The notes under the pieces are model-generated. The model was given only the letters and a program-made list of their open reading frames with translations, was not told where the DNA came from and did not search any database. A stretch of 34,298 nt of DNA from Chloroflexota bacterium (GTDB lineage Bacteria; Chloroflexota; Anaerolineae; UBA4142): positions 1 to 34,298 of the forward strand of contig VGOB01000030.1 of NCBI GenBank assembly GCA_016865935.1, given 5' to 3'. Both the position numbers and the translations under genes were made by a program. Below, one piece after another: positions 5,390-20,216 of the stretch; position 1 is the first letter of the stretch, and the number at the start of each line of letters is the position of its first letter.

Positions 5390-5419
5390 TTGACATTTGG
5401 CTTCGCGCGGGTGTATAGT
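5390..5419 (+). promoter_or_regulatory. sigma70-like promoter (TTGACA, 18-bp spacer, TATAGT)
   Basis: TTGACAtttggcttcgcgcgggtgTATAGT, immediately upstream of the first plus-strand gene of the phage-like module. Confidence 0.4.
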
Positions 5420-6889: not shown

Positions 6890-6950
6890 TCGGGAAAATT
6901 TATTTCCGCGTTTGCCTTTTTGTGTGGGGCATCTTGTCAGGGGCGATCAA

Positions 6951-8579
6951 GTGAGAAAACCAGGAACATCGGATCGGCATCGTCTCGCGTTGGGCTTGGC
7001 TGCGCTTTTGTTTTCCTTAAGCGCGATCCTCGTCGTGCCGTTTCTTGCTTTTGGTCAAGGGACGATTCCAGCGAATGGGGCGTTTAGTGGTGGTCTCACG
7101 GGCTGGACTGTTCTCGGGTCTCAGGTGTGGCGCGGGGACATTGGACGGACCGCTAATGGCGCGGCGTGGTTTTATGGTAACGGCGGCGGTGCTTTGGTCA
7201 GTTCCGCATTTGTTCCGAGTGCGTCAACCGTCTTGACGATGTGGGTCGGTCGCTTAACTGGCTATGCCGCGATGCTGTACCTGCAAGTGTGGGATTACAC
7301 CACGGGGCAGATTCTGTTCGTCGGCAATCCGGTGAGTGCTTCGGGCTGGACTGAGCAGCAGTACGATTTATCCGGGTACGCGGGAAAAGTGATCGCGATT
7401 TCGTTCAACGCCAATTCTGGTAATGACGTGGTTGCGGTGGACGATATTTCGATTTCCAATGCGAGTTCATACACGGCATCGGAGAGCGAGGGAAATTGGT
7501 CGTTTCGCGCGTCGCTCAAGGGCTGGGTCCCGATGATGTCTTTTGCGTTTCAATCGTCGGTCAGTCAAGATGCGAATTCGGGATCGGTGGGCTTTTCCGG
7601 ATCAACCTGGGGCAATGTTTACAGTGTTCCGGTGTTGGTCTCAAGCGCGAATTGGTCGGGTTACTATCGTTGCACATCAACGCAGTATGTGCGGATTCAT
7701 TGGTACGATCAAACCCTGGGGACAAATGCGCTCATCACGCAACCTGCCGCAAATTGTGATGGCACCTGGAAACAGTTTTCCTGGTCAATGGGTCAGTACG
7801 TAGGTAACACGGGTCAATTGATGGGCACGATCTATGATGGCGGGACGAATTACCTGGACGCGCTTTGTCCTAGTTCCGGGTGCGGATCGGGCAACCTGGC
7901 AACGCCTACGCCGATCCCCAGTCCTACGGCAACCGGCGGCGGCGGTGGGGGCTATCCGACGCAATTACCCTATCCGACGCAATTACCTTATCCGACTTTC
8001 CCGCCATTTCCTACGTTCGCCCCATACCCGACTTTCCCGCCTTACCCGACTGTTGATTTCGGATGGAGTACGCCTTACGTGATTACGTTTGGCGGGACGC
8101 CTCAACCCGTGATCGTCACCAACACGGTGCAGATTACCGGTTCGGTCAACGTGCTGAACTGGCCGACGCCGATCTACGGACCGGGGACGCCGATGCCGGT
8201 TTATTATCCGACCAAGGAAATGACGCCCTTTGCAATTCCCACGGGCGCAGGTGGTGGGGGCGGCTTGGGGGTCACAATTGGCGGGGTGGTTGCAACCCAG
8301 CAAACGGGCAACATCTCGGGCGTGATGCCGTTCGCAACCCAGGGCGGTCAAACTTTCGAGACGCCAGGGGCGACGATCCAAGAACGTGTCCTGGGCTTTT
8401 GCTTTCCGGAACAAGTGACCAGGATTTTCGGGGGCGGTGCCGTGCCGGTCTGCTTCAACTTTACGATGTGGGAGGTCACGAAATTTTCGTACCTGGGCGT
8501 CAATCTGCTTGTGCCGCTCGGCGCGATTATGATCGTGTTCTTCTTTGTCTTCCTGGCGCGCCAGGTGCAGCAAAATTAG
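6951..8579 (+). CDS. pIII-like minor coat/adsorption protein: signal peptide, two beta-rich domains, Gly-rich and Pro/Thr/Tyr-rich linkers, C-terminal membrane anchor
   Basis: N-terminal signal/TM LALGLAALLFSLSAILVVPFLAFG and two similar domains (WTVLGSQVW... and WSFRAS...). Linker is PTPIPSPTATGGGGGGYPTQLPYPTQLPYPTFPPFPTFAPYPTFPPYPT, with a later GAGGGGGLG run. C-terminal anchor is LLVPLGAIMIVFFFVFLARQ. GTG start with AGGGG RBS chosen; TTG 6912 is an alternative. Confidence 0.5.
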   Translation: MRKPGTSDRHRLALGLAALLFSLSAILVVPFLAFGQGTIPANGAFSGGLTGWTVLGSQVWRGDIGRTANGAAWFYGNGGGALVSSAFVPSASTVLTMWVGRLTGYAAMLYLQVWDYTTGQILFVGNPVSASGWTEQQYDLSGYAGKVIAISFNANSGNDVVAVDDISISNASSYTASESEGNWSFRASLKGWVPMMSFAFQSSVSQDANSGSVGFSGSTWGNVYSVPVLVSSANWSGYYRCTSTQYVRIHWYDQTLGTNALITQPAANCDGTWKQFSWSMGQYVGNTGQLMGTIYDGGTNYLDALCPSSGCGSGNLATPTPIPSPTATGGGGGGYPTQLPYPTQLPYPTFPPFPTFAPYPTFPPYPTVDFGWSTPYVITFGGTPQPVIVTNTVQITGSVNVLNWPTPIYGPGTPMPVYYPTKEMTPFAIPTGAGGGGGLGVTIGGVVATQQTGNISGVMPFATQGGQTFETPGATIQERVLGFCFPEQVTRIFGGGAVPVCFNFTMWEVTKFSYLGVNLLVPLGAIMIVFFFVFLARQVQQN

Positions 8580-8710: not shown

Positions 8711-9559
8711 ATGGGGCTTTTGGCAAACGGCTTGCCGATGGCATCGGCGGCGCAAATGCGGCTCAAGCATTTGCTCTTTACCTATCTGCGCTATCTGTAC
8801 GGCGATAGTTTTGCAAAGGACCCGATCCTGGGTTTCTTTTTCGGCGATTGGTTGGAGGACGCCGGAGTGGAACCGGCGATTCCTCGATGCGTCGTCGAAT
8901 TGGAACAGAAGATCACCTATCCCAAACCGACGTTCTGGAATGCGGAGAATTTCCTTGAAGCACTCCTGGCTTATCGCTTGGTATGGCTGAAAGGTCGGCT
9001 TGGCGGCGGTAAGACCTCGCTCGCGTTCGGGCTTGCGAAATGGTTGTACGAAACGAAAGGCAAGGATGGGCATCGCCTGGTAGATGGCGTATTTACAAAT
9101 GTGCCTTCCGATCCGGATTTCATTCCACGCTTGGATCACTGTTATCGCGCCTGCGTGATTCTCGATGAAGGATGGGCGCACGGCGCCGATTCGCGTGACA
9201 GTGGTTTTCGATATTCGGGGTACGGCGCATACGCGCGCAAGTTGGATTGCTTTTGGTTGCAAGCGTCCAAGAATGAAATTGACAAGCGAATGACGGATGT
9301 CATTGCTAAGCGGCGCGGCGATCTCTGGATGTTCAAGGCGTGGCTGTACACCTGGACGGACGGCGAGGCGTCTGAAGGTTGGTTCTTGTGGCGTCGCTAT
9401 ACTGAAGTCTTTGGACGTTACTTGACCAAGTTCATTCCGGCGGACGATGGCGGAATTTTGGAAAGTCAAAAATATGAGATCGCCGGACGCGCGGGTAGCA
9501 CTCAATTGCTCGTGCCGACCGGATGGTACAACAAACCAAGGACAGGGGCGCACGCGTGA
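8711..9559 (+). CDS. P-loop NTPase, Zot/pI-like phage assembly ATPase candidate
   Basis: Walker A VWLKGRLGGGKTSLAFGLAKW and Walker B CVILDEGW. It follows the pIII-like and pVI-like genes as in inoviruses. Start could be 8666 instead. Confidence 0.45.
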   Translation: MGLLANGLPMASAAQMRLKHLLFTYLRYLYGDSFAKDPILGFFFGDWLEDAGVEPAIPRCVVELEQKITYPKPTFWNAENFLEALLAYRLVWLKGRLGGGKTSLAFGLAKWLYETKGKDGHRLVDGVFTNVPSDPDFIPRLDHCYRACVILDEGWAHGADSRDSGFRYSGYGAYARKLDCFWLQASKNEIDKRMTDVIAKRRGDLWMFKAWLYTWTDGEASEGWFLWRRYTEVFGRYLTKFIPADDGGILESQKYEIAGRAGSTQLLVPTGWYNKPRTGAHA

Positions 9560-10449
9560 GCGATCAACCTTTGACTTCTGCGCCTGATGCGCCGGAAAAA
9601 CTTGCCGCGCCAGGCGTGACGCCAAAAGACAATACGCGTCCGGAGTTGCATTTCCAAAATCGCCGGAAGTTGTTGACCTTGTTTTTCATCGTCCTGATCC
9701 TGGGCGTCTGCTGGTTTATGGGATCACGTTTCGCCAATCCGCTGCAAGGCGCGGATATGGCGTTGACCGGTGGGGCGACTGCGGCGAAAAAACGAGAAAC
9801 GGCGCAAGCATTGGAGCAGCAGCAGGGTCCCTTGCCGCCTGCGGTGAAAGGTTTGGCGTTGACTGCTACGCCTCCTGCGATTGGCGGCGGGATTATGGGG
9901 GCGTCTCAACCGAACGTGCCTGCGCCTCAGCAACAACAACCGGCAACCTCGGGTCGTTCGAGCGGCGTGATTGTTGCGGCGCCGAATGAGATAAACGCGG
10001 TGATGTGCCGCGTTGTGTCGAATTTTGAGGCCGAGAGCGTGAAACTGCTTCAAGGTTCTTTGGTTCGCGCTTCGGGCTTTTCATACGCAAAAAACGGAGT
10101 GGTGTACCTTTCGGATCCGAATGTTGGCTGGGTAGATTCGACCTGGTTGGGTTGTCCGCCGGAGATCGTTCGCATCGAGCGACCTTACTTTGTTTCTCCG
10201 ACTGTGACGCCGACCGGAAAAGCGAAAGGTCCGGAGGTTCTTCGTGTGGCAGTTCCTCAGACTGTTGTCGTTAGTGCTACGCCTTGCGTACTACCTAAAA
10301 CGCCTGCTGAGGTGAATGGGGTGGTGCTGGAGGGCGATTGCGTCATTTTTCAAATTACGGGCGTTCGCGCGATCTATGCCGATGGCAAACCTGTTTCCGG
10401 CGGTACAAAGATTTGCGGCGTCAATAATTTCAGTGTCACGATTCGATGA
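9523..10449 (+). CDS. bitopic membrane protein with extracytoplasmic domain (possible pI C-terminal/pXI-like partner)
   Basis: One TM (LLTLFFIVLILGVCWFMG) followed by a Pro/Ala/Gln-rich linker and a beta-rich domain. Overlaps the end of the NTPase gene. Confidence 0.4.
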   Translation: MVQQTKDRGARVSDQPLTSAPDAPEKLAAPGVTPKDNTRPELHFQNRRKLLTLFFIVLILGVCWFMGSRFANPLQGADMALTGGATAAKKRETAQALEQQQGPLPPAVKGLALTATPPAIGGGIMGASQPNVPAPQQQQPATSGRSSGVIVAAPNEINAVMCRVVSNFEAESVKLLQGSLVRASGFSYAKNGVVYLSDPNVGWVDSTWLGCPPEIVRIERPYFVSPTVTPTGKAKGPEVLRVAVPQTVVVSATPCVLPKTPAEVNGVVLEGDCVIFQITGVRAIYADGKPVSGGTKICGVNNFSVTIR

Positions 10450-10464: not shown

Positions 10465-10545
10465 ATGAGCGATCCGAATCCAAGGATTCCGGAGGACGAT
10501 GAAGAGGAATGGTTGGACGATGAGGACGACGACGAGGGCGAGTAG
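10465..10545 (+). CDS. tiny acidic peptide (26 aa; MSDPNPRIPEDDEEEWLDDEDDDEGE)
   Basis: Strong RBS AAGGGGGTGAG then ATG. Extremely acidic. Confidence 0.25.
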   Translation: MSDPNPRIPEDDEEEWLDDEDDDEGE

Positions 10546-10576: not shown

Positions 10577-11242
10577 ATGTTCGGGGATTTTGTTTCGTCT
10601 TTGCAGTTGTCCGCGTTGAGCGATGCCATTATGGGCGTGTTGTCTATTCCGTTGGTGCCAGCGTTGGGGCTGACTGTGATCGTGTTCTACCTTGTGCCGT
10701 TCGCGTTTCGCCGACTTTATGCTTTGGCTTCGAGTAATCGTCAATCGGATGAAATTCTTCGGGAGTTTGCGGCGGCGCGCGAGGTTGAATCGCGGATTCA
10801 GAGTTTCTTGTTGCGCCATCCTCCCCGTTCGGTCGAGGAACAAGCTGCGGCGGAGCTCGGCATTTCGGTCGAGGAGTTGATCGCGCCCGATCCTTGGGAT
10901 GAGTATAAAGTATTTTCGGCGGACGGTGGTCCTGAGATGGATCCGGTCGAGGCGCGCGAGATTTTGGAGGCGGAAAGACAGGGGGGCGATCCTCGTGGTC
11001 GGGTGGTATGGCTGTATGATGAAACGAGTGATGTGGGAAAGTCCATTCGGCGACAATCTGAGAAAAGGCGAAAACGCGGGGGTGATCAGCGGGTAGCCGA
11101 AGAACTCGGGATGTCGGTGGAGGAGTGTCGCGAGCTTATGGCGGCGGAAGAGTATCTTTACGATGAAACAAGTGGTGCGGCAAAGTCCCTTCGGCGACAA
11201 GCTGAGAAAAGGCGAAAACGCGGGGGCGATTTGCCCTTCTAG
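10577..11242 (+). CDS. coat-like N-terminal TM domain protein, paralog A (internal duplication; C-terminal RRKRGGDLPF tail)
   Basis: N-terminus MFGDFVSSLQLSALSDAIMGVLSIPLVPALG is shared with 11293, 12066, 12952 and 13740. The AEELG(I/M)SVEE...KS(I/L)RRQ(S/A)EKRRKRGGD module occurs twice. GGAG RBS. Confidence 0.6.
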   Translation: MFGDFVSSLQLSALSDAIMGVLSIPLVPALGLTVIVFYLVPFAFRRLYALASSNRQSDEILREFAAAREVESRIQSFLLRHPPRSVEEQAAAELGISVEELIAPDPWDEYKVFSADGGPEMDPVEAREILEAERQGGDPRGRVVWLYDETSDVGKSIRRQSEKRRKRGGDQRVAEELGMSVEECRELMAAEEYLYDETSGAAKSLRRQAEKRRKRGGDLPF

Positions 11243-11292
11243 TATTTTCGTGTCGCGCACGTGCTTGACACGAAATAATTCGGGGAGTTGAA

Positions 11293-12015
11293 ATGTTCAA
11301 TGATTTTGTTTTCTGGCTTGACCTGACGAGATTGGCGGACGCCATCGGCGCGGTATTACAAATTCCGCTCGTCCTGGCACTCGGCGTTAGCGTGTTTGCG
11401 CTGCCGCTCGTGGTTATCGTTTTCCGGCGTCTGTACGATTTGCTGGAGTTGCGTCACGTCATCGCGTTGTCAAAACGTGAAGCGACTCAGCAAGCGCAGT
11501 TTGAAATCGACCTGGCTCAATTTCTGTTGAAACGTCCGGATTTGAGTATCGAGCAGCGGGTAGCTGAAGAACTCGGGATGTCGGTGGGGGAATTGAACGC
11601 GCCTGGCGGGTGGAGTGATGATTCGGTTTATTCGGCGGATGGGGGTCCCGAAATGGATCCAGTTGAGGCGCGCGAGATTTTGGAGGCGGAAAGACAGGAC
11701 GGCGGACAGTACGGTCGTAGCCGCGCTATTTCTCTCGCCGATGGGTCCTATGCCTGTCCGGAATGCCTGAGCGGTCTGGATGAAGAGTACGTGCCCGATG
11801 GCTCGCTTGGCTGTTCTGTGTGCGGATGGCTTGAAATGGACGATGATCCTCAGCCGGTGGTGGGCTATGTGCCAAAGCGCGCCCAAAATCCGTCTGAGTT
11901 CGTGGATTCGCTTTATGATGCGGACGGCAATTTCGCCGCATTCACGCCGACGCAAAAGTCAATTCGACGACAAGCCGATAGAAGGCGAAAACGCGCGGGC
12001 GATTTGCCCTTCTAA
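11293..12015 (+). CDS. coat-like N-terminal TM domain protein, paralog B (zinc-ribbon CPEC...CSVCGW; same C-terminal tail)
   Basis: MFNDFVFWLDLTRLADAIGAVLQIPLVLALG. Shares ADGGPEMDPVEAREILEAERQ and the KSIRRQADRRRKRAGDLPF end with paralog A. Confidence 0.6.
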   Translation: MFNDFVFWLDLTRLADAIGAVLQIPLVLALGVSVFALPLVVIVFRRLYDLLELRHVIALSKREATQQAQFEIDLAQFLLKRPDLSIEQRVAEELGMSVGELNAPGGWSDDSVYSADGGPEMDPVEAREILEAERQDGGQYGRSRAISLADGSYACPECLSGLDEEYVPDGSLGCSVCGWLEMDDDPQPVVGYVPKRAQNPSEFVDSLYDADGNFAAFTPTQKSIRRQADRRRKRAGDLPF

Positions 12016-12065
12016 TATTTTCGTGTCGCGGTCGAGCGGGACACGTAATAATTCAAGGAGATGAA

Positions 12066-12659
12066 ATGTTCAATGAATTTGTTCTCTGGCTTGACTTGGC
12101 GGGTTTGGCTGCCGCGATCTCGGCGGTGTTTGCGATTCCGCTGGTTCAGGCACTTTTCGTAGGGCTGCTCGGCTTTACCATCGTGCTTTGGGGGCTGAAG
12201 ATGATTTCGCGATTGGCGGGGCTGTATTTCGCGTTGCCCGGAGATGTCCACGAGGCGACACCAGGCGCGATCAATGTGCCTGGAATGATGCTCCGCCAGG
12301 ACGATTACTTGAATGTGGACGTTGACGTGGCGGCAACGTTGCTTACAGGGCAACAAGCTCAATGGATGGTCGAGCGTTATGGCCCGGACGTCGATCCTGT
12401 CTTGAGCGAAGAGGGCAGCTGGATGCAAGTGCGCGTTGACCTGGGTTTGAATGCGCCGGAATTGTATTATGGCTTGACTGGGCCCGAAGCAATGGCTTTG
12501 CAGGATTACTCGTATCGTCGCGCGTTTCCTGAGGAGTTCTCGGGTGGGGGGGATGCCGAAATGATCGCCTCGCACAATCAAATGCGCGCGCGCCGTTCCG
12601 CGAACAATCGGGGGCAAAATCAGCACTATGACGATCTCGCCTTCGAGGGTGCGGTCTGA
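12066..12659 (+). CDS. coat-like N-terminal TM domain protein, paralog C (divergent C-terminal domain)
   Basis: MFNEFVLWLDLAGLAAAISAVFAIPLVQALF, with two TM helices. The 50-bp leader is nearly identical to that of paralog B. Confidence 0.55.
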   Translation: MFNEFVLWLDLAGLAAAISAVFAIPLVQALFVGLLGFTIVLWGLKMISRLAGLYFALPGDVHEATPGAINVPGMMLRQDDYLNVDVDVAATLLTGQQAQWMVERYGPDVDPVLSEEGSWMQVRVDLGLNAPELYYGLTGPEAMALQDYSYRRAFPEEFSGGGDAEMIASHNQMRARRSANNRGQNQHYDDLAFEGAV

Positions 12660-12943
12660 TGGATTCAACGCCGGTTGACGTTGTTGCGCTTTCACTGATC
12701 GCGGTGCAAGGCGCGGAGATAGTTGCCGCTTCGATTGCGGTCGGCTTTCTGTTTCTCTTGATCTCACTGCCAGGGCAAAATCAGATGAAGGTCCAAAACG
12801 CCTTCTTGCTGATCGAATTGTTCTGCCTGCCGGTCTGGTTTGTCTCGCTGATCTGGTGGGTTCTGCTGCACTATATCTTCGTCGTGATGTACGTGATGCT
12901 CAATGCCTTTGGGCGTCTCGTGCGGCAAAGGGTCAAAACGTAG
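12659..12943 (+). CDS. small polytopic membrane protein (94 aa)
   Basis: Start overlaps the previous stop (TGATG). Three hydrophobic helices. Confidence 0.4.
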   Translation: MDSTPVDVVALSLIAVQGAEIVAASIAVGFLFLLISLPGQNQMKVQNAFLLIELFCLPVWFVSLIWWVLLHYIFVVMYVMLNAFGRLVRQRVKT

Positions 12944-12951
12944 GAGGGGCA

Positions 12952-13113
12952 ATGTTGAATCTGCCGATTGAATGGACTGCCATCGCCGACGCAATGGTTG
13001 ACTTTGCCGCGATTCCGATTGTTCCCGCCATCGCTGCGGCGGTGATCGGCATCGGTCTCGTCGTGTTCTTGATCCAACAAATTCAAAAACTGTTTGGATC
13101 GGGAGGTGAGTGA
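12952..13113 (+). CDS. coat-like small protein (53 aa)
   Basis: AGGAGGGG RBS. IADAMVDFAAIPIVPAIAAAVIGIGLVVFLI matches the family motif (L/I)xDA(I/M)....IP(I/L)V.A. Confidence 0.45.
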   Translation: MLNLPIEWTAIADAMVDFAAIPIVPAIAAAVIGIGLVVFLIQQIQKLFGSGGE

Positions 13114-13274
13114 TGAATTTTGAAAACGTGGCAATGAGCGGCGATCTGATTTGGGAACAAATCCAACTGATCTTGGGCATCGGCTTTGTGATCGCGTTGA
13201 TGATCTTGCCGTTGTCGATCAAGTTCATCTTTCGCCTGGTCAAAGGGCTTGGGCGTTCCCTGGTGAGAATGTGA
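13113..13274 (+). CDS. small membrane protein (53 aa) with basic C-terminus, coat-like
   Basis: GGAGGTGAG RBS. The ATG overlaps the previous stop. LILGIGFVIALMILPLSIKFIFRLVKGLGRSLVRM. Confidence 0.35.
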   Translation: MNFENVAMSGDLIWEQIQLILGIGFVIALMILPLSIKFIFRLVKGLGRSLVRM

Positions 13275-13642
13275 CGATCAAGTGGCTTGCTGTCGCGCTG
13301 GCAATCGCGCTTTGTCTGTTCTTGCTTCTGCTTGGATCGGTTCAAGCGGAAACGATGCACCCTGGCGCGCTGGCAATGGTGTTGCAACAAGGGACGGGAA
13401 CTCCTCCGTCGACGGAAACGCCATCGGCAACTGAAACGCCCTCGCCGACGTCGACGCGGTTGCCGACCGCCACGCGTGTCAAGTGGACGCACGGGATCGA
13501 GGATGAAGCGACGGTCCCGAATGTGACTGATCTCATTGCCGGTTTCTTCTTGATTCCGGCGGTAACTGCGGCGATCCTGGGGGTGTTTGCGATCACTATC
13601 GTCGTGCTTGCTTTTCGGCACTTCCAGCGTTTGATCGAGTAG
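13271..13642 (+). CDS. secreted Thr/Pro-rich protein with C-terminal membrane anchor (minor coat-like)
   Basis: GTG start overlapping the previous stop. Signal peptide WLAVALAIALCLFLLLLGSVQA, then TPPSTETPSATETPSPTST, then a C-terminal TM plus basic RHFQRLIE. Confidence 0.45.
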   Translation: MTIKWLAVALAIALCLFLLLLGSVQAETMHPGALAMVLQQGTGTPPSTETPSATETPSPTSTRLPTATRVKWTHGIEDEATVPNVTDLIAGFFLIPAVTAAILGVFAITIVVLAFRHFQRLIE

Positions 13643-13739
13643 TACACCACACTTTATAAAATAGTTCGGCGCGTGACCTGGTCGAACGTTGACGTACTCG
13701 GGTCCGCTAATCCTATTAGAGAAGGGAGGTGAAAGCAAA

Positions 13740-13904
13740 ATGTGGAGCGATTTCAGCACCGTGTTGACTGAGGCCGCGTTGGGTGACGCCATCGGCGACG
13801 TGCTCGGGATTCCCATCGTCGTGGCAGTTGGTCTGGGCACGATGGCCCTGGGTTTGGTCGTCTTTGCGCTGCGCCGACTCAAACGCCTCGCGCCTCAATC
13901 TTAG
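13740..13904 (+). CDS. major coat protein-like (54 aa: acidic amphipathic N-terminus, hydrophobic core, basic C-terminus)
   Basis: Strong RBS GAAGGGAGGTGA. MWSDFSTVLTEAALGDAIGDVLGIPIVVAVGLGTMALGLVVFALRRLKRLAPQS has the g8p-like architecture and matches the paralog family. A GC-rich hairpin at 13921-13956 follows it. Confidence 0.5.
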   Translation: MWSDFSTVLTEAALGDAIGDVLGIPIVVAVGLGTMALGLVVFALRRLKRLAPQS

Positions 13905-13980
13905 GCATTATGCCTCAACCGTGTGGGGGACGCCGCACTGTGGGGTGTCCCCCCACCATCTTTGATCTGAAGGAGTTGCT

Positions 13981-14136
13981 ATGCCAACCTTGCCTGATTA
14001 CTGGACGACGATTTCAAGTCAAATGTCGTCCTTTATGAACTGGACTGCCGTTTCGACGCCCACCGCGATCATCGTTGGCGCGGCGGTCGTGTGCGTGATG
14101 CTGGCGATGTTCCTGTCCGTTTTCATGAAGCATTAG
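13981..14136 (+). CDS. small membrane protein (51 aa)
   Basis: GAAGGAG RBS. TM AIIVGAAVVCVMLAMFLSVF. Confidence 0.35.
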   Translation: MPTLPDYWTTISSQMSSFMNWTAVSTPTAIIVGAAVVCVMLAMFLSVFMKH

Positions 14137-14262: not shown

Positions 14263-14460
14263 ATGTCGGTTTCAGATCGGCGAACAGTGTTATTTATCTT
14301 GCGCGTGATCTTGGTCTCGATCTTGCTTCAAGTCCTGATCGCTGCGCTCGACGTTCCGAATGTGGTGCTTGCGATAACCGCGCCGGTCGGGACATTGGTG
14401 ATTTTGGCGGTGCTTGATTGGGCCGACAAGCACGTCAAGTTGTCGTTTCGGATTGATTGA
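14263..14460 (+). CDS. small membrane protein (65 aa)
   Basis: AAGGGAGAG RBS. Two hydrophobic helices. Confidence 0.4.
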   Translation: MSVSDRRTVLFILRVILVSILLQVLIAALDVPNVVLAITAPVGTLVILAVLDWADKHVKLSFRID

Positions 14461-14650
14461 TGTCGCGCCTCGTTTCGCGCGTGGCGGGACACAATTCAAA
14501 GTATTGGCTCGTGATCCACATTCCGAATCGCTGTGCGGTGCGTTGTTCGGATTGTGGTCGTTATCATCGGGTTGGCGTCGTCATTTCAAAGCGGTACACT
14601 TGTAACCGCTCGCCTGGCGAACGCCGATTTATCCTAATTTGCCTGCGTTG

Positions 14651-14699
14651 TCTCAACCGATTCGGTTGGGACCTGACCCCCGTGTAGTAATACGGGGGT
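14651..14699 (+). promoter_or_regulatory. two perfect hairpins immediately upstream of rep (candidate plus-strand origin/nick site)
   Basis: CAACCGAtTCGGTTG is a palindrome. GACCCCCGTgtagtaatACGGGGGTC has a 9-bp perfect stem and an 8-nt AT-rich loop. Both lie 20-70 bp before the Rep start. Confidence 0.4.
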
Positions 14700-14720: not shown

Positions 14721-15665
14721 ATGCACATAGACTGGATAGGTGTAACCCTTCAAGGCAATAGCCAACATGCTCTTGGGCTTGTGCGCTCGTGGGCTGGGTC
14801 GCTCGAGGAGATGAGCGGCGGAGGTATGGGCTACGATCGAAGTGCCAAGATATGGGACACGGGTCGAGTGTATTGGTCTACTATGCGATCCGATATGGGC
14901 GTTCACGTCCGCTTGCCTTCAAGCGCAATGCACACAAGCAAACAAGACTCAGTGGACCTACTGACGTGGCTTGTGAGGCACAACGGCAATACGACGCGGC
15001 TTGACGTGGCTTGTGATGACTTTGACTATCACTTGCTCGACCTCGCAGAGATTAGCCGCAAGGCGCAAGAGGATGAAGTATGCACGGACGCCCAGGTGAT
15101 TGATGAATGGCACGCGTTGCGGGGCGTAGGGCATACGATCTACTTTGGCTCGCGTTCGAGTGAGCGCCTGTTACGCATTTATGACAAAGCCGCGGAGCAA
15201 GTAAAAAAAGCGGGCGGCAATGCGGCGATGCCTGACGAATTCTGGGTTCGGGTGGAGTTGGAGTTGAAAGGGGATCGGGCAAAAGTCGCGGGGCAAATGA
15301 TCGTTGATCATCGTGAAACGTGGCAGATTCTAGGGGCTGGCTGGATTCGGGACTTTGTAGATTTCAAGGAACCCGAATTGGAGGATATTAACAAGGCGCG
15401 TTGGGAAACTTCTAGATGGTGGCTTGATTTTCTGGACAATGCTGCCAAGTGCAAAATTCCGATCAAGCGTGAGGAACAAACGATAGAACGGATCGTGGCG
15501 TGGGTGGACAAGCAAGTGGCGCCCAGTCTGTTTGTTTTGAGCGCGACGGTGGGACACGATCAGGTATTTGAACGGGTTGGCGCGGCGTCTGCGCGTTTGA
15601 GTGCGCGCCAGGTGCAGTTGATCAATGAGTGGAACACTGAAAACGAGGTTACCGATGTTCAATGA
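14721..15665 (+). CDS. rolling-circle replication initiator, Rep_trans family (phage replication initiation factor, RstA/gpII-like)
   Basis: Motifs HTIYFGSRSSERLLRIYDKAAE and FWVRVELELKGDRAK resemble the conserved (R)xYDK and vRvElel blocks of PF02486. Size 314 aa. Confidence 0.55.
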   Translation: MHIDWIGVTLQGNSQHALGLVRSWAGSLEEMSGGGMGYDRSAKIWDTGRVYWSTMRSDMGVHVRLPSSAMHTSKQDSVDLLTWLVRHNGNTTRLDVACDDFDYHLLDLAEISRKAQEDEVCTDAQVIDEWHALRGVGHTIYFGSRSSERLLRIYDKAAEQVKKAGGNAAMPDEFWVRVELELKGDRAKVAGQMIVDHRETWQILGAGWIRDFVDFKEPELEDINKARWETSRWWLDFLDNAAKCKIPIKREEQTIERIVAWVDKQVAPSLFVLSATVGHDQVFERVGAASARLSARQVQLINEWNTENEVTDVQ

Positions 15666-15801
15666 TCTGCTCAATCAAATCGCATTTCATTCGCCGTACC
15701 TCGCTTGGACGAATGAAGAACGCTGGTACTATTGTTTCCTCTTGAGCGCGTTGATGCTGTGTTTTTGGATCGCGTTTCCGCGCGGCGGCGGCAAGTCGTG
15801 A
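15655..15801 (+). CDS. small protein (48 aa) with an MFND N-terminus like the coat-domain family
   Basis: Overlaps the Rep stop. MFNDLLNQIAF... has a hydrophobic stretch and a GGGKS end. Weak. Confidence 0.25.
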   Translation: MFNDLLNQIAFHSPYLAWTNEERWYYCFLLSALMLCFWIAFPRGGGKS

Positions 15802-15859
15802 CGCCGGCGGGATCGCTTTGACCTGCAAATGTCCCGCATTTTGGGACACCGCGACCGCG

Positions 15860-16126
15860 CGTTGACACGAAAAAACGTTTTTTCCGCGGCGGATGACACG
15901 AAAAGCGACAAGCTTATCAGTAAGGGGCGTACTAATCGCTCCTGCCAGGCGGATGACACGAAAAAAGTCGAATTTTCCCCGCGCGCGTGATTTCCCGTAC
16001 AAAAAAAATCCCTGCCGCTCCGGAGAGCGACAGGGACTTTGTTTGTCCGGATGTTGACACGATTTCCGCGACCGCTGTTTTCGTGTCCTCGACGTGCCGG
16101 ACACGAAAAAAGGTTTCGTGTCACGC
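15860..16126. repeat. cluster of GACACGAAA(A) / TTTCGTGTC motifs (six or more copies, direct and inverted)
   Basis: ttGACACGAAAAAAcg, gcggatGACACGAAAAgcg and gcggatGACACGAAAAAAgtcg are direct copies. TTTTCGTGTCctcgacgtgccgGACACGAAAAAA is an inverted pair, and GGTTTCGTGTCACG also occurs. The motif also forms hairpins in the leaders at 11245-11276 and 12018-12046. Confidence 0.6.
16003..16050. terminator. bidirectional terminator in the convergent intergenic region
   Basis: AAAAAAAA-TCCCTGCCGCtccggagaGCGACAGGGA-CTTTGTTTGT. Confidence 0.45.
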
Positions 16127-16135
16127 TCGACCCTC

Positions 16136-16339
16136 TTATTTGCGTTTCTTCTTGAGGGCTTTTTCGAGCGGGGCGTAGGACGCCCACATCGCTGTGCGCG
16201 CGCGTTGTTGTCGCGCGCGCATCTTGCAGCGGTTGCTGCAATATTTCTTTCGACGCCCACCGCGATCCGATTGCTCGATGGGCTGGCTACACATCCGGCA
16301 CTTGTCCGGACCTGCGAACTTGTATGCCATTGCGATCAC
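16136..16339 (-). CDS. small basic zinc-ribbon protein
   Basis: CRMCSQPI...YCSNRCKMR with KR-rich tails. Confidence 0.4.
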   Translation of the reverse strand: MIAMAYKFAGPDKCRMCSQPIEQSDRGGRRKKYCSNRCKMRARQQRARTAMWASYAPLEKALKKKRK

Positions 16340-16650
16340 CTCCTTTCCTCGATTTTGACTTCTCTGACGATCTGCGCGAACGTGGTTGGATCCACGCGGA
16401 ACGTCAGCACTTTTGGTTGCCAGGTGCGATCAAAGTCAACAGGCGCGGACCAGTCGTTTTTGACGGAAGCTATGTACCACCCCGGGGGGGTTTTGACACG
16501 TCCTCGATGCATCTGCCAAATGCAGTACAAGGCGTGATTGTGCAAATGCAGTTCGTCGAATTCTTCGGCGAGGTTTGCGACGGTCGTGAGTGATAGTCCG
16601 ATTGCTTCGGTTAGCATTGTGAGCAGTTCGTTGTCAATCGTCTTCGTCAT
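16336..16650 (-). CDS. hypothetical protein
   Basis: 104-aa ORF packed tightly with its neighbours (start/stop overlaps). Typical protein-like composition. Confidence 0.4.
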   Translation of the reverse strand: MTKTIDNELLTMLTEAIGLSLTTVANLAEEFDELHLHNHALYCIWQMHRGRVKTPPGWYIASVKNDWSAPVDFDRTWQPKVLTFRVDPTTFAQIVREVKIEERR

Positions 16651-17263
16651 CGCGCATCCCTCGCATTTTCTCGACTTGTCGGCGCGCCATAACCCGCGCG
16701 TGATGCTGCTGGATGGGTATTAGGACTTGAGCGGCGATTTCGTGCGGAATGTCGTCCAGGTCGATCTTGACGTCCCGCAGCGTGATGTTGATGGTGCCAT
16801 AGACGCCATAGGACAAGGGTAAGTGCAAGCGCGTGGTTTCGCCTTCGCATTTTTCGGGCGGTTTGACGCCCAGCAGATCGGCGAACTTCTTTGTAAGCCG
16901 CATAACTGCTTCCACGTTTGCGTTGTACTCGGCGTGGCGGACTTTTGCTTCCGCAAGATCGGCGAGACATTTCGGGAGTAGCCGCCGGTGAATGTCTTTG
17001 ACGATCTGCTCGATGCTCTTGGCGACGCTTACGCCGATCTCGTGTCGTCCTTTCTCATTTCTTTGATTGTACGTGAGAAAGTCTCTCCACATACCGAAAC
17101 CGGCTGAGATTCGAATTCGTCCTCTTTCGTCGTGGACGTAGAGCATCAATTCTGACTTTGGATCGATGATTCTTGCGCTCCAGGATTGTTGTTCGTCGTC
17201 GAACTCCCATCCCATAATCGTGGCGATTTGCTTCGCCACAAAGTGAATGTCAATCTCACCCAT
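16634..17263 (-). CDS. hypothetical protein (209 aa)
   Basis: Long ORF, operon-packed. Confidence 0.45.
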   Translation of the reverse strand: MGEIDIHFVAKQIATIMGWEFDDEQQSWSARIIDPKSELMLYVHDERGRIRISAGFGMWRDFLTYNQRNEKGRHEIGVSVAKSIEQIVKDIHRRLLPKCLADLAEAKVRHAEYNANVEAVMRLTKKFADLLGVKPPEKCEGETTRLHLPLSYGVYGTINITLRDVKIDLDDIPHEIAAQVLIPIQQHHARVMARRQVEKMRGMRDDEDD

Positions 17264-17585
17264 CGGTCCTCCCTTTCCCCGGATTGCACAAGGGGCAATC
17301 CTTTTTGAGACCTCGCCACCGGCGTCCGCCGTTTCCGTCCTGCTGCATATGCAGGTGCGCGACGTGTACTTTTCCGTCGCGCGTGATGATGTACGATAGT
17401 TCTGCGCGTGCGTAGGACTCGTCTGCTCGATGCGTGATGTACTTGTGATCCCGATTCAAGGACGGATGATCCGGATACCAGGATACGCGCATCTCGTAGT
17501 CCTCTCGCTTGGCGCGTCGACGCGCCTCCCGGATTGCTTCAAGACTTGTCATAGTTTTTTCTCCTTTCTCAGAACCAGGACGCAA
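17256..17585 (-). CDS. hypothetical protein (start uncertain)
   Basis: ORF overlaps its neighbours. Cys pair CPLC near the C-terminus. Confidence 0.3.
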   Translation of the reverse strand: MRPGSEKGEKTMTSLEAIREARRRAKREDYEMRVSWYPDHPSLNRDHKYITHRADESYARAELSYIITRDGKVHVAHLHMQQDGNGGRRWRGLKKDCPLCNPGKGRTDG

Positions 17586-18192
17586 ACACAGGTTCGCGTT
17601 GGTTGTCGTTGGCTTCTTGCACGAGCGCGCGCGCCATCTTGAAACTGCTCATATATCCGTGATGCGATCTTCGTCCGCTTGGACTGATCGCGTACTGCAC
17701 CGGCTTGGTGGGATTGCCTTTGTAGCACGCGTCGATCCATTCGCAATAGTCCGGATCGCCGATGAGCGCATTTCGCAAGATGCTGGCGGCGTGGCTGGGT
17801 GTTGCATAGCCCAGGGATTCACAAATCACGTGCGCGACGATGTTGGGCCATCGGCGCATAATTTGTTCACGGGTCATTGTCTCGATCATCACGCGGCGAT
17901 CTTTGTCTTTGATCAGCGGCTTGACGTTGTACTCCAGGCGTCGCGCTTGTCGCCACATTCGGTTGTATCGTTCGTCCATCTGTTTTAGCAGTTGCTTGTT
18001 GCTGTAACAGGTGTTTGTCCACTTGAAACGCTCGATGTCGGCGATTGCGCGGTTCAGTTCGGGCAAGGTCATTGCCTCGATGTCCGGCTCGATGTTTGAG
18101 ATCGTTGCTACGACTGCCGGTTGTTCCTCTGCGTACTCGTCTAGGACGTACCACAGTGTTTCTGCCTCGCCGTGCCAAGTTGTCGCGATCAT
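17569..18192 (-). CDS. hypothetical protein (207 aa)
   Basis: Long ORF with protein-like composition. Confidence 0.45.
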   Translation of the reverse strand: MIATTWHGEAETLWYVLDEYAEEQPAVVATISNIEPDIEAMTLPELNRAIADIERFKWTNTCYSNKQLLKQMDERYNRMWRQARRLEYNVKPLIKDKDRRVMIETMTREQIMRRWPNIVAHVICESLGYATPSHAASILRNALIGDPDYCEWIDACYKGNPTKPVQYAISPSGRRSHHGYMSSFKMARALVQEANDNQREPVFASWF

Positions 18193-18746
18193 TCCTCATC
18201 CCCCCTTCCAATCAAGCGTGGTTGTTGTGTCTTTGATGGGCGCGGGTTTGCATTCACACGCACACTGCCGTAATTTTCCCGAATTTCGTCAATGGTGAAT
18301 TCCCGATGTCCACCGGCGGGAATTCCAGCGAAGTACCACAACTTCTTTTTCGCCGCCCATCGGAATTTTGCGGCTTTGAGTTGTTCGCGGTTCTCTTTCG
18401 TGTTGCCGCCCACCCAAACCCACAAGCCGCAAATCTCGATGTCGAGTCCCTCGATGCCGATGATTTGCTCGATGGCTTGGCGAATTCGCTCGTCAACTGC
18501 GGCGGCGTCTGTGAAGTCTTGCGCCGTTGGTTCGGGTTTGCCTTGCTGACGCGCTTTCTCGCGCATCTCGGCTTGCCGGAACATCGCGGACGCCTGGGCA
18601 TACTCGACGTTGATTTCTTGCATCGCGCGAGTACGCATTTCTTTTTCATCCGACGTGCCCAAGTCCGGATGAAACATTTTACACAACCGGCGATATTCGA
18701 TTTTCACATCTTCGGCGGTCGTGCAATTGTGAAAGTGCTTTAACAC
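18189..18746 (-). CDS. J-domain (DnaJ-like co-chaperone domain) protein
   Basis: EDVKIEYRRLCKMFHPDLG carries the HPD tripeptide in the helix II-III context of J-domains. Confidence 0.55.
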   Translation of the reverse strand: MLKHFHNCTTAEDVKIEYRRLCKMFHPDLGTSDEKEMRTRAMQEINVEYAQASAMFRQAEMREKARQQGKPEPTAQDFTDAAAVDERIRQAIEQIIGIEGLDIEICGLWVWVGGNTKENREQLKAAKFRWAAKKKLWYFAGIPAGGHREFTIDEIRENYGSVRVNANPRPSKTQQPRLIGRGDEE

Positions 18747-18801
18747 TCTGATTCTCCTTTTGGAGCGCCTTGATCATCGCACGATCAAGGTGCATTGGTT
18801 T

Positions 18802-19023
18802 TTAGTCATAACAGAAGTGTTTGATGTCGTTGTGCCAGGTGACGATCAATATTACGCTTTCGGCGCGAATCGAGCAGCACTCGCTCATATACGTTTCATA
18901 CGTGTAAATGTCGTAGTACTCTTTGCCTTTGTCGTCTCGATGGTCGAAGTAGACCACGAACGACTTGCCTGGGTTTCGTTTGGCTGATCGCTTGGCGAGT
19001 GCAATCGCGTTGCGCTTTGTCAT
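18802..19023 (-). CDS. hypothetical protein (74 aa; the longer ORF extension upstream is probably not coding)
   Basis: Start taken at MTKRNAIALAKR. The upstream extension is R/S-rich low-complexity. Confidence 0.3.
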   Translation of the reverse strand: MTKRNAIALAKRSAKRNPGKSFVVYFDHRDDKGKEYYDIYTYETYMSECCSIRAESVILIVTWHNDIKHFCYD

Positions 19024-19060
19024 TGGGCGGTCAAAGTTGTTCACAGTTGTTGAGTTCCTT

Positions 19061-19570
19061 TCATTCCAACCATCCCTCGTGCAATGCTTGTCTTGCGGCA
19101 TCTCGAAGAGCGGCGCGCGCATAGACCACGTTGATCCGAGCTTCTCCCAGCAGTTGCGTGAGGTGATCGGTGATGAGATATTCCGCCTGGCGCGTGCTGC
19201 GCTCGGTGCGGAATTGATTTTTCCATTCTTGGGCTTTGATCGGCGCGTCGTCGTACTCATCCACGCCGATCCCGTTGCCTAGGTTTGCGTTGATCCGCAA
19301 TTCGTTCAAGACGCGTCCGGCGATCACAAGGACCTTACGCCGTGCCTTGCGGTTCTTGCGGTCGCGCGGATCGTGCGACTGATCGAGAATCTCCTCGATG
19401 CGTTCGACGAACGCTTCGGGGATCGCCTCGACGAATCTTGGATCATCGCTGGCAAGCCGGTTGATCTCGCCGTTCTCGTCTTCGAGCTCGGAGAGCATTT
19501 CGACTTGACTCCATTTTCGGGCTTGCCATCGCGCGTAATTGAGCGCACAACGCGCGACGTACACCGGCAA
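19061..19570 (-). CDS. sigma-70 family factor (regions 2 and 4), phage-type; true start upstream and non-ATG or frameshifted
   Basis: Region 2.2-2.4-like EGLIAALRTYDPAKSSLPVYVARCALNYARW and region 4.2-like LGEARINVVYARAALRDAARQAL. Homology continues upstream of the TTG at 19570 to an in-frame stop at 19647-19649, with no ATG. Confidence 0.5.
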   Translation of the reverse strand: MPVYVARCALNYARWQARKWSQVEMLSELEDENGEINRLASDDPRFVEAIPEAFVERIEEILDQSHDPRDRKNRKARRKVLVIAGRVLNELRINANLGNGIGVDEYDDAPIKAQEWKNQFRTERSTRQAEYLITDHLTQLLGEARINVVYARAALRDAARQALHEGWLE

Positions 19571-19608
19571 ACTGCTTTTCGCCGGATCGTATGTCCGGAG
19601 TGCCGCGA

Positions 19609-19752: not shown

Positions 19753-19758
19753 CGTTTC

Positions 19759-20112: not shown

Positions 20113-20216
20113 TTCGCCAACCCCTTTCGCAAAAAAGTGTATTCGATCTCGAAACCGCTGAGATCGCTTGCGACACACCGCAAGGCGGGCTGAGCATCAA
20201 GCCCGATGCGTTTTTT

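Follow-up and report, generated by a model that had tools for sequence, protein, structure and literature searches.

Tandem paralogs with a coat-type helix and long C-terminal extensions in an inovirus-like element of Chloroflexota

RESULTS

An integrated inovirus-like module

The window, 34,298 nucleotides of contig VGOB01000030.1, contains a module that resembles a filamentous phage (inovirus-like) and is integrated in the genome of a Chloroflexota host; NCBI lists the MAG as a Chloroflexi bacterium. Its inovirus-like hallmarks are a Rep_trans initiator, a P-loop ATPase, and many single-TM proteins of ~50 aa (Table 1). The genes for the latter form an array on a single strand and are each preceded by an SD, an arrangement that agrees with the inovirus criteria of Roux et al. 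(PMC6813254). Relatives come from MAGs of Chloroflexi and Anaerolineales, and the contig of one measures 342 kb.

The AF2 model of the ATPase (pLDDT 77) had Inoviridae Zot as its top BFVD matches (E = 3e-6, probability 1.0), with TM-scores of only 0.38 to 0.54, and the protein gave no match to Pfam Zot; these scores and the failed Pfam match count against an inovirus-type assignment. The 308-aa protein encoded next is likely the membrane half of a split pI. An integrase gene is located at 27705-28766, ~12 kb away from rep. The genes between the two carry no cellular annotations, and the element may therefore be ~25 kb long. A 555-aa protein with hydrophobic segments at its N and C termini has a spike-like look, and a conserved 76-aa Zn-finger-like protein is encoded upstream of rep.

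Table 1. Features of the inovirus-like module (positions within the window)
Feature	Position	Strand	Remark
P-loop ATPase, TM-less	8711..9559	+	context: morphogenesis ATPase
308-aa single-TM protein	9523..10449	+	overlaps ATPase gene
Paralog A, 221 aa	10577..11242	+	coat-type N-module aa 1-52; C-terminal DLPF
A: two AEELG(I/M)SVEE units	10847-10876 and 11096-11125	+	
A: GGPEMDPVEAREILEAERQ	10925-10981	+	
A: two basic units KS(I/L)RRQ(S/A)EKRRKRGGD	11039-11086 and 11183-11230	+	
Junction cassette copy 1	11182..11381	+	A tail codons, stop, H1, SD, first B codons
Palindrome H1	11245..11276	.	TTTTCGTGTC-N12-GACACGAAAT
Paralog B, 240 aa	11293..12015	+	coat-type N-module
B: AEELGMSVGE	11563-11592	+	
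B: GGPEMDPVEAREILEAERQ	11641-11697	+	
B: CPEC-x17-CSVC	11755-11823	+	aa 155-177
Junction cassette copy 2	11955..12154	+	B tail codons, stop, H2, SD, first C codons
B: basic tail KSIRRQADRRRKRAGDLPF	11956-12012	+	
Palindrome H2	12018..12049	.	TTTTCGTGTC-N12-GACACGTAAT
Paralog C, 197 aa	12066..12659	+	N-module, divergent extension with RARRSANNRGQ
C: GPDVDPV	12381-12401	+	
D, 53 aa	12952..13113	+	coat-like module protein without basic C-terminus
G, 123 aa	13271..13642	+	read from GTG overlapping stop of F
G: signal peptide	13271-13348	+	
G: T/P-rich linker	13391-13477	+	
G: coat module	13523-13639	+	C-terminal anchor
E, 54 aa	13740..13904	+	acidic N-terminus, TM helix, RRLKRL
GC-rich hairpin	13921..13957	+	directly 3' of E; terminator-like, weak T tract
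Rep_trans rolling-circle replication initiator	14721..15665	+	E = 6e-40
Non-coding region after rep	15862..16122	.	six exact GACACGAAA copies

A six-member family from a coat-type helix

Six proteins (A, B, C, D, E, and G) form a family that arose by duplication of a coat-type helix. The module they share, ~50 aa long, opens with an acidic amphipathic N terminus; the motif IP(L/I)V, the TM helix, and a juxtamembrane RR follow. The earlier note had listed six ORFs as starting with this module. All the ORFs listed were found at the positions given and six carry the module, but only A, B, C, D, and E start with it, whereas in G it is C-terminal. Of two coat-like proteins both put at 54 aa, E has this length and D is one residue shorter.

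The 54-aa modules were compared by composition-preserving shuffles (n = 500). All pairs among A, B, C, D, E, and the C terminus of G reached z = 5.6 to 20, and 0/500 shuffles matched the observed score; the small TM proteins F, H, I, and J of the same operon gave background scores, except for the D-H pair. An HMM built with D and G left out and searched against 1,542 ORFs recovered D at E = 1.9e-10 and G at 7.4e-9, with F at E = 3.8 and H at E = 8.6. Matches of an A+B+C profile among 1.84 billion proteins (E = 1.5e-8) were confined to long homologs and 54-aa E-like proteins; therefore, the similarity is not one of generic TM composition. The proposed kinship of the modules thus withstood formal testing, and the proteins belong, as suggested, to a true paralogous family from a coat-type helix within a filamentous-phage-like morphogenesis operon. 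No sequence match to the coat-module proteins was found among Pfam coat families and deposited phages.

E, probably the major coat protein, has an SD stronger than any other (GGGAGGTG). Conservation within the family is highest for this member, with a dN/dS of ~0.10 relative to L005. D is kept in the relatives L004, L005, L007, L012, and L013. The ectodomain of G varies among relatives, where total lengths are 55, 118, and 198 aa. Because it combines a signal peptide, this variable ectodomain, a T/P linker, and a coat module, G would fit an adsorption or display role.

Three long paralogs with mosaic extensions

Full-length BLASTP gave E values of 8e-40 for A versus B and 4e-13 for B versus C. 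Every family gene has its own SD, and the stop of C overlaps the ATG of gene I, which encodes a 94-aa multi-TM protein that is a better pVI analogue within the operon than A-C. An independent assembly, made from a second sample, reproduces A-C and matches at 100% identity over 11.4 kb. Synonymous sites are saturated between the paralogs, the reading frames are unbroken, and pN is well below pS (0.40 and 0.73 for A versus B, hence a dN/dS of ~0.2); the range for A-C is 0.2 to 0.4, as opposed to 0.10 in coat E. Purifying selection thus acts on the three tandem paralogs.

A GPEMDP-acidic helix is common to the three extensions, and a basic patch ending in DLPF to most of them; in C, a DDLAF sits 4 residues short of the C-terminal end. 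An HTH-like unit occurs twice in A, once in B, and not in C. It matches Sigma70_r3 and MerR below the Pfam threshold (E = 0.006 to 0.02), and its putative recognition helix is short and acidic. The internal duplication reported for A is borne out by two 75-nt units (11012-11086 and 11156-11230) that are 88% identical, and the AEELG units of A (11084-11124) and B (11551-11591) are 93% identical. A and B do share the tail KS(I/L)RRQA(E/D)(K/R)RRKR(G/A)GDLPF. The zinc ribbon proposed for B is present as a CxxC...CxxC motif but lacks family support (best Pfam match, E = 0.11). The C-terminal domains are swapped, as had been noticed: they form a mosaic in which modules were gained, lost, and exchanged between paralogs. 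Pfam, PHROG, PDB, and PADLOC yielded no function-assigning match for any part of A-C.

Ff capsid proteins are all N-out/C-in (PMC10175506). A-C have the charge layout of these proteins and of the short, coat-like E, with a negative N-flank and RR after the TM helix, and are therefore predicted to be N-out/C-in as well, which places the 145- to 188-aa extensions on the cytoplasmic or lumen side. The extensions are hydrophilic and net acidic (pI 4.3 to 5.0, 21 to 39% charged residues, GRAVY -0.44 to -0.95), which argues against simple DNA binding. In the AF2 model of B, pLDDT exceeded 60 only in helices 2-8, 11-22, and 25-79; as the alignment comprised only 3 sequences, the low confidence is not proof of disorder. 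The models suggest extensions that are mostly unstructured. The idea that A-C are adsorption variants is not supported by the charge layout, which puts the extensions on the interior side, not outside. An alternative coat acting as bulk filament subunit is unlikely, since such extensions could not line the narrow lumen. To our knowledge, long C-terminal, interior-side tails on a coat helix are absent from the well-studied filamentous phages.

Junction cassettes and palindromes

The two junction cassettes are 82% identical over 200 nt. The leaders of B and C, described earlier as near-identical over 50 bp and containing a hairpin, are indeed so, but the conserved block measures ~150 to 200 nt and spans tail codons, stop, hairpin, SD, and the first ~10 to 30 codons. 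Both hairpins were found, the second being imperfect (GACACGTAA). An iteron-type palindrome is present in three copies, and the leader hairpin represents one of these. Palindrome H3 (16078-16109) comprises two of the six GACACGAAA copies after rep, and a variant half-site, GACACGAT, occurs near 16056 in the same non-coding region, which looks like an iteron, operator, or origin region. Palindromes and half-sites are confined to the A|B junction, the B|C junction, and this region, with 10 copies of the motif observed versus 0.55 expected.

A lineage-specific slot

In every relative, the slot of A-C lies directly downstream of the gene for the 308-aa protein. L007 has two adjacent short module proteins there (56 and 87 aa), and L008, L009, L011, L012, and L013 have no module genes in the slot. 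With three long genes here and none or two short ones in relatives, the anticipated copy-number variation was found, and A-C are therefore a lineage-specific accessory expansion between assembly genes and coat genes. A scan of 1.84 billion representative proteins yielded one other long homolog. A homolog from another metagenome is 184 aa long and matches in architecture and position; the gene after it also encodes a protein starting with MFGD.... The independent homolog P0003 keeps three motifs, namely the GPEMD-acidic helix, VAEELG, and the LPF end. The relative L003 has an HTH-like unit and no palindrome after its gene.

DISCUSSION

Our preferred reading, held tentatively, is that A-C may be accessory proteins, minor components of the virion or assembly factors, that dock by means of the coat helix. 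They would insert N-out/C-in without a signal peptide, as Pf3-type coats do, and the shared helix would let them pair laterally with E at the assembly site and serve there in virion or assembly. The extension would fit only at the membrane-proximal, terminating end of the filament or would stay outside the particle. Its GPEMDP-acidic helix, basic RRKR patch, HTH-like or CxxC units, and DLPF end might engage phage DNA and/or a cytoplasmic partner, candidates being the TM-less assembly ATPase and a host protein. The array may evolve by recombination, with gene conversion, at the conserved junction cassette. The junction palindrome is a copy of an iteron-type sequence found in the ori-like region downstream of rep, so a DNA-binding protein of the phage-like element itself is probably involved when the array is expressed or rearranged. 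The small hydrophobic proteins I, D, F, and H suffice to take the parts of pVI, pVII, and pIX, which makes a structural function of A-C dispensable. Release would also require a trailing hydrophilic domain of 170 aa to pass through the membrane, which speaks against a virion role.

A-C could instead act outside the virion, in superinfection exclusion, a role raised in the earlier note, or in immunity, as mimics of the coat helix that remain in the lysogen membrane. There they would poison disassembly or DNA entry of related phages, restrain premature polymerization of E, or intercept incoming DNA with the cytoplasmic domain. Three diverged, shuffled paralogs that have a higher dN/dS than the coat (0.2 to 0.4 versus 0.10), are accessory and lineage specific, vary in copy number and length among close relatives, and are anchored by the same helix as the coat would suit a conflict-type gene. 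The genes, however, lie within the morphogenesis operon and not near the regulatory or integrase end, PADLOC returned no match for A-C, and inovirus exclusion is known to us only through periplasmic pIII-type domains or small proteins, not cytoplasmic domains; we consider this possible but unlikely. A membrane-containing budding virion, as in pleolipoviruses, plasmaviruses, or the proposed IME1 viruses of Chloroflexota, seems quite unlikely, although it would remove the steric problem: A-C would be matrix-like membrane proteins of the virion interior, lining the envelope and holding the genome with their C-terminal domains, a role to which N-out/C-in anchors, large interior domains, and basic patches are naturally suited. 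The spike-like 555-aa protein is compatible with this, as is an element of perhaps ~25 kb, given the distance from rep to integrase; IME1 spans 21 to 28 kb, has a pI-like ATPase and small TM proteins, and is proposed to bud. IME1 replicates with a primase-helicase, as opposed to Rep_trans here. Moreover, the coat layout of E and D is of the classical Pf3/Pf1 type, the ATPase model is closest in fold to Inoviridae Zot, and A-C are absent from distant relatives with the same core and so cannot be an essential matrix protein.

The restriction of the overrepresented palindromes to the two junctions and the region after rep raises the question of whether A-C are membrane-tethered regulators whose HTH-like, CxxC, and basic units bind TTTTCGTGTC-N12-GACACG and thereby link the site of assembly at the membrane with replication, packaging, or expression. 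The extension is predicted on the cytoplasmic face, and A and B have two and one HTH-like units, respectively, with weak Sigma70_r3/MerR matches. These matches, however, are far under the Pfam thresholds and the recognition helix is short and acidic; the unit is missing from C, L003 has it without the palindrome, and Rep or the 76-aa Zn-finger-like protein would be more conventional iteron binders. We regard such a role as very doubtful. That A-C are decaying or functionless products of a recent tandem duplication of a coat gene, fused to junk sequence, is highly improbable. The extensions are nearly orphan, with a single long homolog among 1.84 billion representatives, they are modeled by AF2 with low confidence, and the genes are missing in more distant relatives; yet the paralogs keep open frames and a pN far smaller than pS although their synonymous sites are saturated, every gene has its own SD, P0003 keeps the three extension motifs, and two assemblies are identical.

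Among known systems, IME1 of Dehalococcoidia/Chloroflexota (bioRxiv 10.64898/2026.09.15.751708) resembles this element in being integrated and restricted to Chloroflexota. Both encode a pI-like ATPase and, after it, several small TM proteins, both have a tyrosine recombinase nearby, and both show filamentous-virus-like features without tailed-phage hallmarks. Compared by description only, IME1 differs in its replication genes, which include a serine resolvase beside the primase-helicase, and the sections consulted describe no tandem coat-helix protein array.

Bacterial SSB has a linker and a C-terminal tip (PMC5531588). The ends of A and B (GDLPF-COOH) and of P0003 (DLLPF-COOH) resemble this tip (DDDIPF/DDDLPF-COOH), a likeness of form only, and similarly follow a long low-confidence segment in the AlphaFold models. 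The SSB tip is an acidic run, whereas A and B have the basic patch RRKRGG and no OB fold, and C differs by its internal DDLAF.

The first 54 residues of Ff pVI form a helix, which at the terminating tip packs against the lattice of pVIII (PMC10175506); the predicted continuous helix of B (aa 25-79) may be compared with it. Like A-C, pVI has no signal sequence and its N terminus is out, but it is almost wholly hydrophobic, with a U-fold and a buried C terminus, whereas A-C have acidic, hydrophilic extensions of far greater length. In sequence, A-C showed no similarity to Ff pVI, pVII, or pIX. The two short slot proteins of L007 recall the gVII/gIX pair.

G is like pIII and N-terminal pVIII display fusions in its signal peptide, variable ectodomain, low-complexity T/P linker, and C-terminal anchor. 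In pIII the anchor is a separate C-domain, whereas in G it is a true paralog of the coat helix (hold-out HMM, E = 7e-9). The added domain of A-C is at the other end of the module, the C-terminal or interior one. E and the N-modules of A-C resemble Pf3/Pf1-type inovirus coats: ~50 aa, an acidic amphipathic N terminus, one hydrophobic helix, basic residues just after it, no signal peptide, a predicted N-out/C-in topology, and a gene in an operon on one strand that also encodes a Zot-like ATPase and an RCR Rep. Known major coats end at the basic juxtamembrane residues, whereas A-C add 145 to 188 residues.

The shared helix module defines a gene family

All of the ORFs named in the earlier note were found where it had placed them. 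Five begin with the module that it had assigned to the start of all six: the tandem long paralogs A, B, and C and the short proteins D and E, the latter being the probable major coat protein. The sixth, G, ends with it instead. E has the 54 aa claimed for both short proteins, whereas D has 53 aa.

When the 54-aa modules were shuffled 500 times with composition held fixed, every pair among A, B, C, D, E, and the C terminus of G gave z = 5.6 to 20, and no shuffle reached the observed value. F, H, I, and J, other small transmembrane (TM) proteins of the same operon, served as an internal control and stayed at background, except for the D-H pair. A hold-out HMM from which D and G had been left out, run on 1,542 ORFs, scored D at 1.9e-10 and G at 7.4e-9, with F at 3.8 and H at 8.6. 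A HMMER search of 1.84 billion representative proteins with the A/B/C profile returned six proteins: A, B, one 184-aa long homolog (3e-28), two 54-aa E-like proteins (1.5e-8), and one truncated 41-aa copy. Full-length alignments gave 8e-40 for A-B and 4e-13 for B-C. Thus, generic TM-helix composition, which the earlier note had named as the alternative cause of the likeness, is ruled out by the shuffles, the operon controls, the hold-out HMM, and the library profile. A to E and G form a real, well-delimited gene family.

E has the layout of a coat protein (~45 to 55 aa, acidic N terminus, hydrophobic helix, basic C terminus), with an N-flank charge of -2 and the C terminus RRLKRL. The RR after the helix is kept in A, B, and the 184-aa homolog; D has no basic end. 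No coat family in Pfam or PHROG matched E or the shared module at E up to 5. The family is an unusual variant of filamentous-phage structural genes from an uncharacterised lineage of Chloroflexota.

An inovirus-like block and its limits

The contig (JGI Ga0194119_10002142; NCBI MAG "Chloroflexi bacterium"; locus tags FJ009_06100-06115) looks cellular at both ends, with Band_7, DZR, and DUF4062/GAF genes on the left and a tyrosine integrase, a WYL-Cas3 fusion, and Cas5d on the right. The one-strand block encodes, in order, a 555-aa protein, a P-loop ATPase, an overlapping 308-aa single-TM protein, A to C, small hydrophobic proteins (51 to 94 aa), a 76-aa Cys-rich protein, and a Rep_trans initiator of rolling-circle replication (PF02486, 6e-40; phrog_453, 1e-24).

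Features of the window (handles A to G and H1 to H3 as in the text; L005 and L007 are related loci)
Feature	Position	Remarks
Promoter-like site TTGACA-18-TATAGT	5390-5419	near consensus; start of one-strand block
One-strand gene block	~5.4-16.1 kb	
555-aa protein	6912-8579 (L007 11-1678)	upstream of ATPase; N-terminal hydrophobic segment, C-terminal TM helix
P-loop ATPase	8711-9559	no TM segment
308-aa single-TM protein	9523-10449	overlaps ATPase by 37 nt (4 nt in L007)
26-aa hyperacidic ORF (MSDPNPRIPEDDEEEWLDDEDDDEGE)	10465-10545	between 308-aa gene and A; gene call by JGI pipeline
A	10577-11242	long paralog
H1	11245-11276	A|B junction palindrome; carries GACACGAAA
B	11293-12015	long paralog
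H2	12018-12049	B|C junction palindrome; carries GACACGAAA
C	12066-12659	long paralog
D	12952-13113	short module protein
G	13271-13642	C-terminal module
E	13740-13904	short module protein
GC-rich hairpin	13921-13957	strong; directly after E; RNA fold ~-36 kcal/mol for 13900-13985
Cys-rich protein, CSxCG...CLxCLN	14457-14687 (L005 1680-1916)	76-78 aa; just upstream of rep; conserved in one relative
Small-gene run, minus strand	15800-27400	rep to integrase
Post-rep non-coding region	15862-16122	six exact GACACGAAA copies, two of them forming H3
Terminator, 16-bp stem	16005-16040	of converging operon; opposite the block's end
H3	16078-16109	palindrome, non-coding
Tyrosine integrase	27705-28766	
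Cas3 with N-terminal WYL and WCX domains	30363-33602	one 1079-aa ORF; starts ~1.6 kb past integrase
Cas5d	33541-34209	after Cas3 ORF; type I-C-like

D, F, E, H, and J (51 to 65 aa) lie on a single strand, each with one hydrophobic segment and its own Shine-Dalgarno sequence, and are of the short structural type described by Roux et al. (PMC6813254), whose criteria for inovirus-like elements include several structural-type proteins of 30 to 90 aa with one TM domain. Together, the Rep, the ATPase, and numerous 30- to 90-aa single-TM proteins place the block within those working criteria.

Pfam Zot matched neither the ATPase nor any of 15 homologs. When an AF2 model built from these homologs (pLDDT 77) was compared with BFVD, the two top-ranking entries were both named "Zonular occludens toxin [Inoviridae sp.]" (probability 1.0; E = 3e-6 and 6e-6), with modest TM-scores of 0.38 to 0.54. 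We treat the block as a putative filamentous-phage-like prophage module, with the ATPase assigned by fold only. The ATPase and the 308-aa protein, a pair kept in all relatives, look like the cytoplasmic part and the membrane/extracellular part of a split pI/Zot. A word-indexed protein search with the 308-aa protein returned only itself and its counterpart in L007, one of the nearer related loci. The 26-aa hyperacidic ORF is absent from this position in L003 and L006. No family match was found for the 555-aa protein, a candidate pIII-like or spike-like receptor-binding protein; its L007 homolog has a T/P-rich region.

The integrase lies ~12 kb past rep. The intervening run of small genes is nearly Pfam-free (DUF4326 and two HTH proteins), and comparable minus-strand blocks occur in L007 and L009 (RadC, RNase_H, RNase_T), so the mobile element may span ~25 kb rather than ~10 kb. 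No att-type direct repeats of at least 15 nt were shared by the left flank and the rep-to-integrase region, and no tRNA genes were found in the window. All relatives were in Chloroflexota bins, one of them within a 342-kb Anaerolineales contig; among 50,697 phage records, tblastn with E or the ATPase as query gave nothing relevant.

Topology and anatomy of the long paralogs

A contig assembled from another sample matches without a difference for 11,379 nt, a stretch that runs across the whole array to the end of C, and this rules out a repeat assembly artefact. A GGAG-type Shine-Dalgarno sequence precedes each of the three genes. Synonymous divergence between A and B has reached saturation (pS 0.73; pN 0.40), and dN/dS is ~0.2; it is 0.3 to 0.4 for the other pairs and 0.10 for E and its L005 ortholog. 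The independent 184-aa homolog (P0003) occupies the equivalent site, immediately past the counterpart of the 308-aa protein, and retains the VAEELG unit, the GPEMD-acidic helix, the basic stretch, and the LPF end. Another gene, starting MFGDLISLL, follows 11 nt past it.

A, B, and C have no signal peptide. Their module has a negative N-flank and an RR directly after the hydrophobic helix, which is the arrangement of signal-peptide-less coat proteins. [quoted passage not shown] From this charge layout, the extensions of A to C should lie on the cytoplasmic side in the cell that makes the phage and, in any particle, inside it or at its membrane-proximal end.

The extensions share a juxtamembrane helix, a (V/A)AEELG(I/M)S unit, a GPEMDP-acidic helix, a basic patch, and a terminal DL(P/A)F. 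They are net acidic (pI 4.3 to 5.0, net charge -8 to -14) with local basic patches near the end, 21 to 39% charged residues, and a GRAVY of -0.44 to -0.95. The internal duplication in A, the common basic tail ending in DLPF, and the near-identical junctions with a hairpin are as the earlier note described them. The CPEC-x17-CSVC motif that it read as a zinc ribbon in B is present but has no family support. An AF2 model of B from a very shallow, 3-sequence alignment had a mean pLDDT of 52.8, too low for a fold search; confidence was usable only in helices 2-8 and 11-22 and in a continuous helix at aa 25-79 (pLDDT 61 to 82), with the rest below 50.

Searches of Pfam, PHROGs, and PADLOC with A to C and their neighbours gave nothing above threshold. 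The B extension drew from the PDB sequences only a chance RING-like CxxC match (E = 0.75), and a word-indexed protein search with B retrieved nothing beyond A and B. Neither B nor the ATPase had relatives in IMG/VR scans, and a scan of JGI metagenome contigs with the A/B/C/P0003 alignment gave no confirmed ones.

Recombination and palindromes in the array

A and B are for the most part anciently diverged, with 54% nucleotide identity in the N-module, yet their last 19 codons are 88% identical (pS 0.20). The second AEELG unit of A and the AEELG unit of B share 93% DNA identity. Around the start codon (-90 to +30), the A|B and B|C junctions are 80 to 93% identical; over 200 nt the figure is 82%. 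Such a pattern is what gene conversion or unequal exchange at a junction cassette leaves behind, and it accounts for the modules that the earlier note saw as swapped.

The junction palindrome is no private leader. The window has three copies of TTTTCGTGTC-N12-GACACG: one at each of the two junctions and one after rep, where further GACACGAAA half-sites also lie. With 0.55 copies of this 9-mer expected, the window has 10, of which 9 are in the post-rep non-coding region and the junction palindromes. These palindromes and half-sites look like an iteron, operator, or origin element. The Cys-rich protein encoded next to rep may be a zinc-finger DNA-binding protein and is a candidate iteron binder. 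As intrinsic terminators the junction hairpins are ruled out, neither being called by a terminator scan nor trailed by a T tract. The hairpin after E stands just past the probable coat gene, the usual site of termination or attenuation in inoviruses.

A variable slot in a conserved gene order

Every relative examined has the same core order: ATPase, TM protein of 250 to 308 aa, I-like (91 to 97 aa), D-like, G-like, E-like, and H-like genes. The variable part is the slot after the TM protein. It holds three long genes in the window, at least two in L003 (the first of 184 aa), and two short module proteins of 56 and 87 aa in L007 (ATPase 62% identical), and no genes in L008, L009, L011, L012, and L013 (31 to 53% identical). 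The closest relative (ATPase 75% identical; sample 3300060601) is split: contig L010 stops within its homolog of the 308-aa protein, and contig L004 begins with the I-like gene. Contig breaks on either side of the slot suggest a repeat-rich or polymorphic array that short-read assembly did not cross. G-like proteins measure 55, 118, 123, and 198 aa, with the ectodomain alone varying. Thus, the single helix of this lineage anchors variable additions on either side of the membrane, of which the interior-side ones, A to C, are a recent accessory innovation.

Possible roles of the long paralogs

Three observations suggest that these proteins associate with the coat where particles are assembled: the common helix, the location within a morphogenesis operon, and the short forms present in L007. 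Our leading, still tentative, reading is that A to C are accessory minor-virion or assembly proteins; on the interior side, their arm would touch DNA or a partner in the cytoplasm, for instance the TM-less ATPase. The adsorption variants proposed in the earlier note do not suit them; that idea fits G instead. The same helix would also serve coat-mimicking exclusion factors, a rival reading; PADLOC defence models matched none of the three proteins, nor their neighbours, at E up to 0.1. As a further rival, A to C may be membrane-tethered regulators of the palindromes, two of which lie between their genes; A and B themselves could bind these sites, as could Rep or the conserved Cys-rich protein. 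Another rival casts them as matrix-like components of a budding virion, the particle type proposed for the Chloroflexota IME1 elements (bioRxiv 10.64898/2026.09.15.751708). By their published description, those elements have a primase-helicase and a serine resolvase, whereas this one has Rep_trans.

A more elaborate reading, in which A to C are virion-borne "pilot" proteins, is in our judgement a long shot. By their coat helix, the proteins would sit at the filament end that touches the membrane of the new host, and on entry they would dissolve into it N-out/C-in, as coat does. A basic DNA-binding patch and an SSB-tip-like DLPF-COOH, carried on flexible cytoplasmic arms, would then be displayed where the ssDNA emerges. 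Host SSB-client proteins (primosome, polymerase, or helicase) would thus be recruited and complementary-strand synthesis would start, with the three paralogs carrying different effector modules (HTH-like repeats, CxxC, or neither).

If A to C are in the particle, they show that cargo or effector domains can travel at the end of a filamentous virion, with consequences for entry into monoderm-type hosts, for assembly in them, and for phage-display engineering through C-terminal fusions to a coat-type helix. If they are outside it, they would be a new kind of coat-mimicking membrane factor. The lineage, without kin among deposited phages, extends the thin record of filamentous-type viruses of Chloroflexota.

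Comparison with known systems

The terminal GDLPF may be a lead in its resemblance to the SSB tip DDDLPF. A and B end in GGDLPF, the last four residues of which match D-D-D-(I/L)-P-F-COOH, a tip that in SSB comes behind a disordered linker (PMC5531588), but the acidic run is absent from both and the preceding residues are basic. The minor coat protein pVI, at the terminating tip, has no signal peptide, and its long N-terminal helix carries on the coat lattice; it is a mostly hydrophobic, three-helix U with a buried C terminus, whereas the extensions of A to C are hydrophilic and the AF2 model of B has no hydrophobic return helix. To our knowledge, the capsid proteins of well-studied filamentous phages have almost nothing interior (C-terminal) of the membrane helix; additional domains sit on the outer side, as in pIII and display fusions. 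Here, the single coat helix is a universal anchor, with a variable ectodomain outside (G) and long orphan domains inside (A to C), and it is the inside-facing genes that have been amplified in tandem and recombined.
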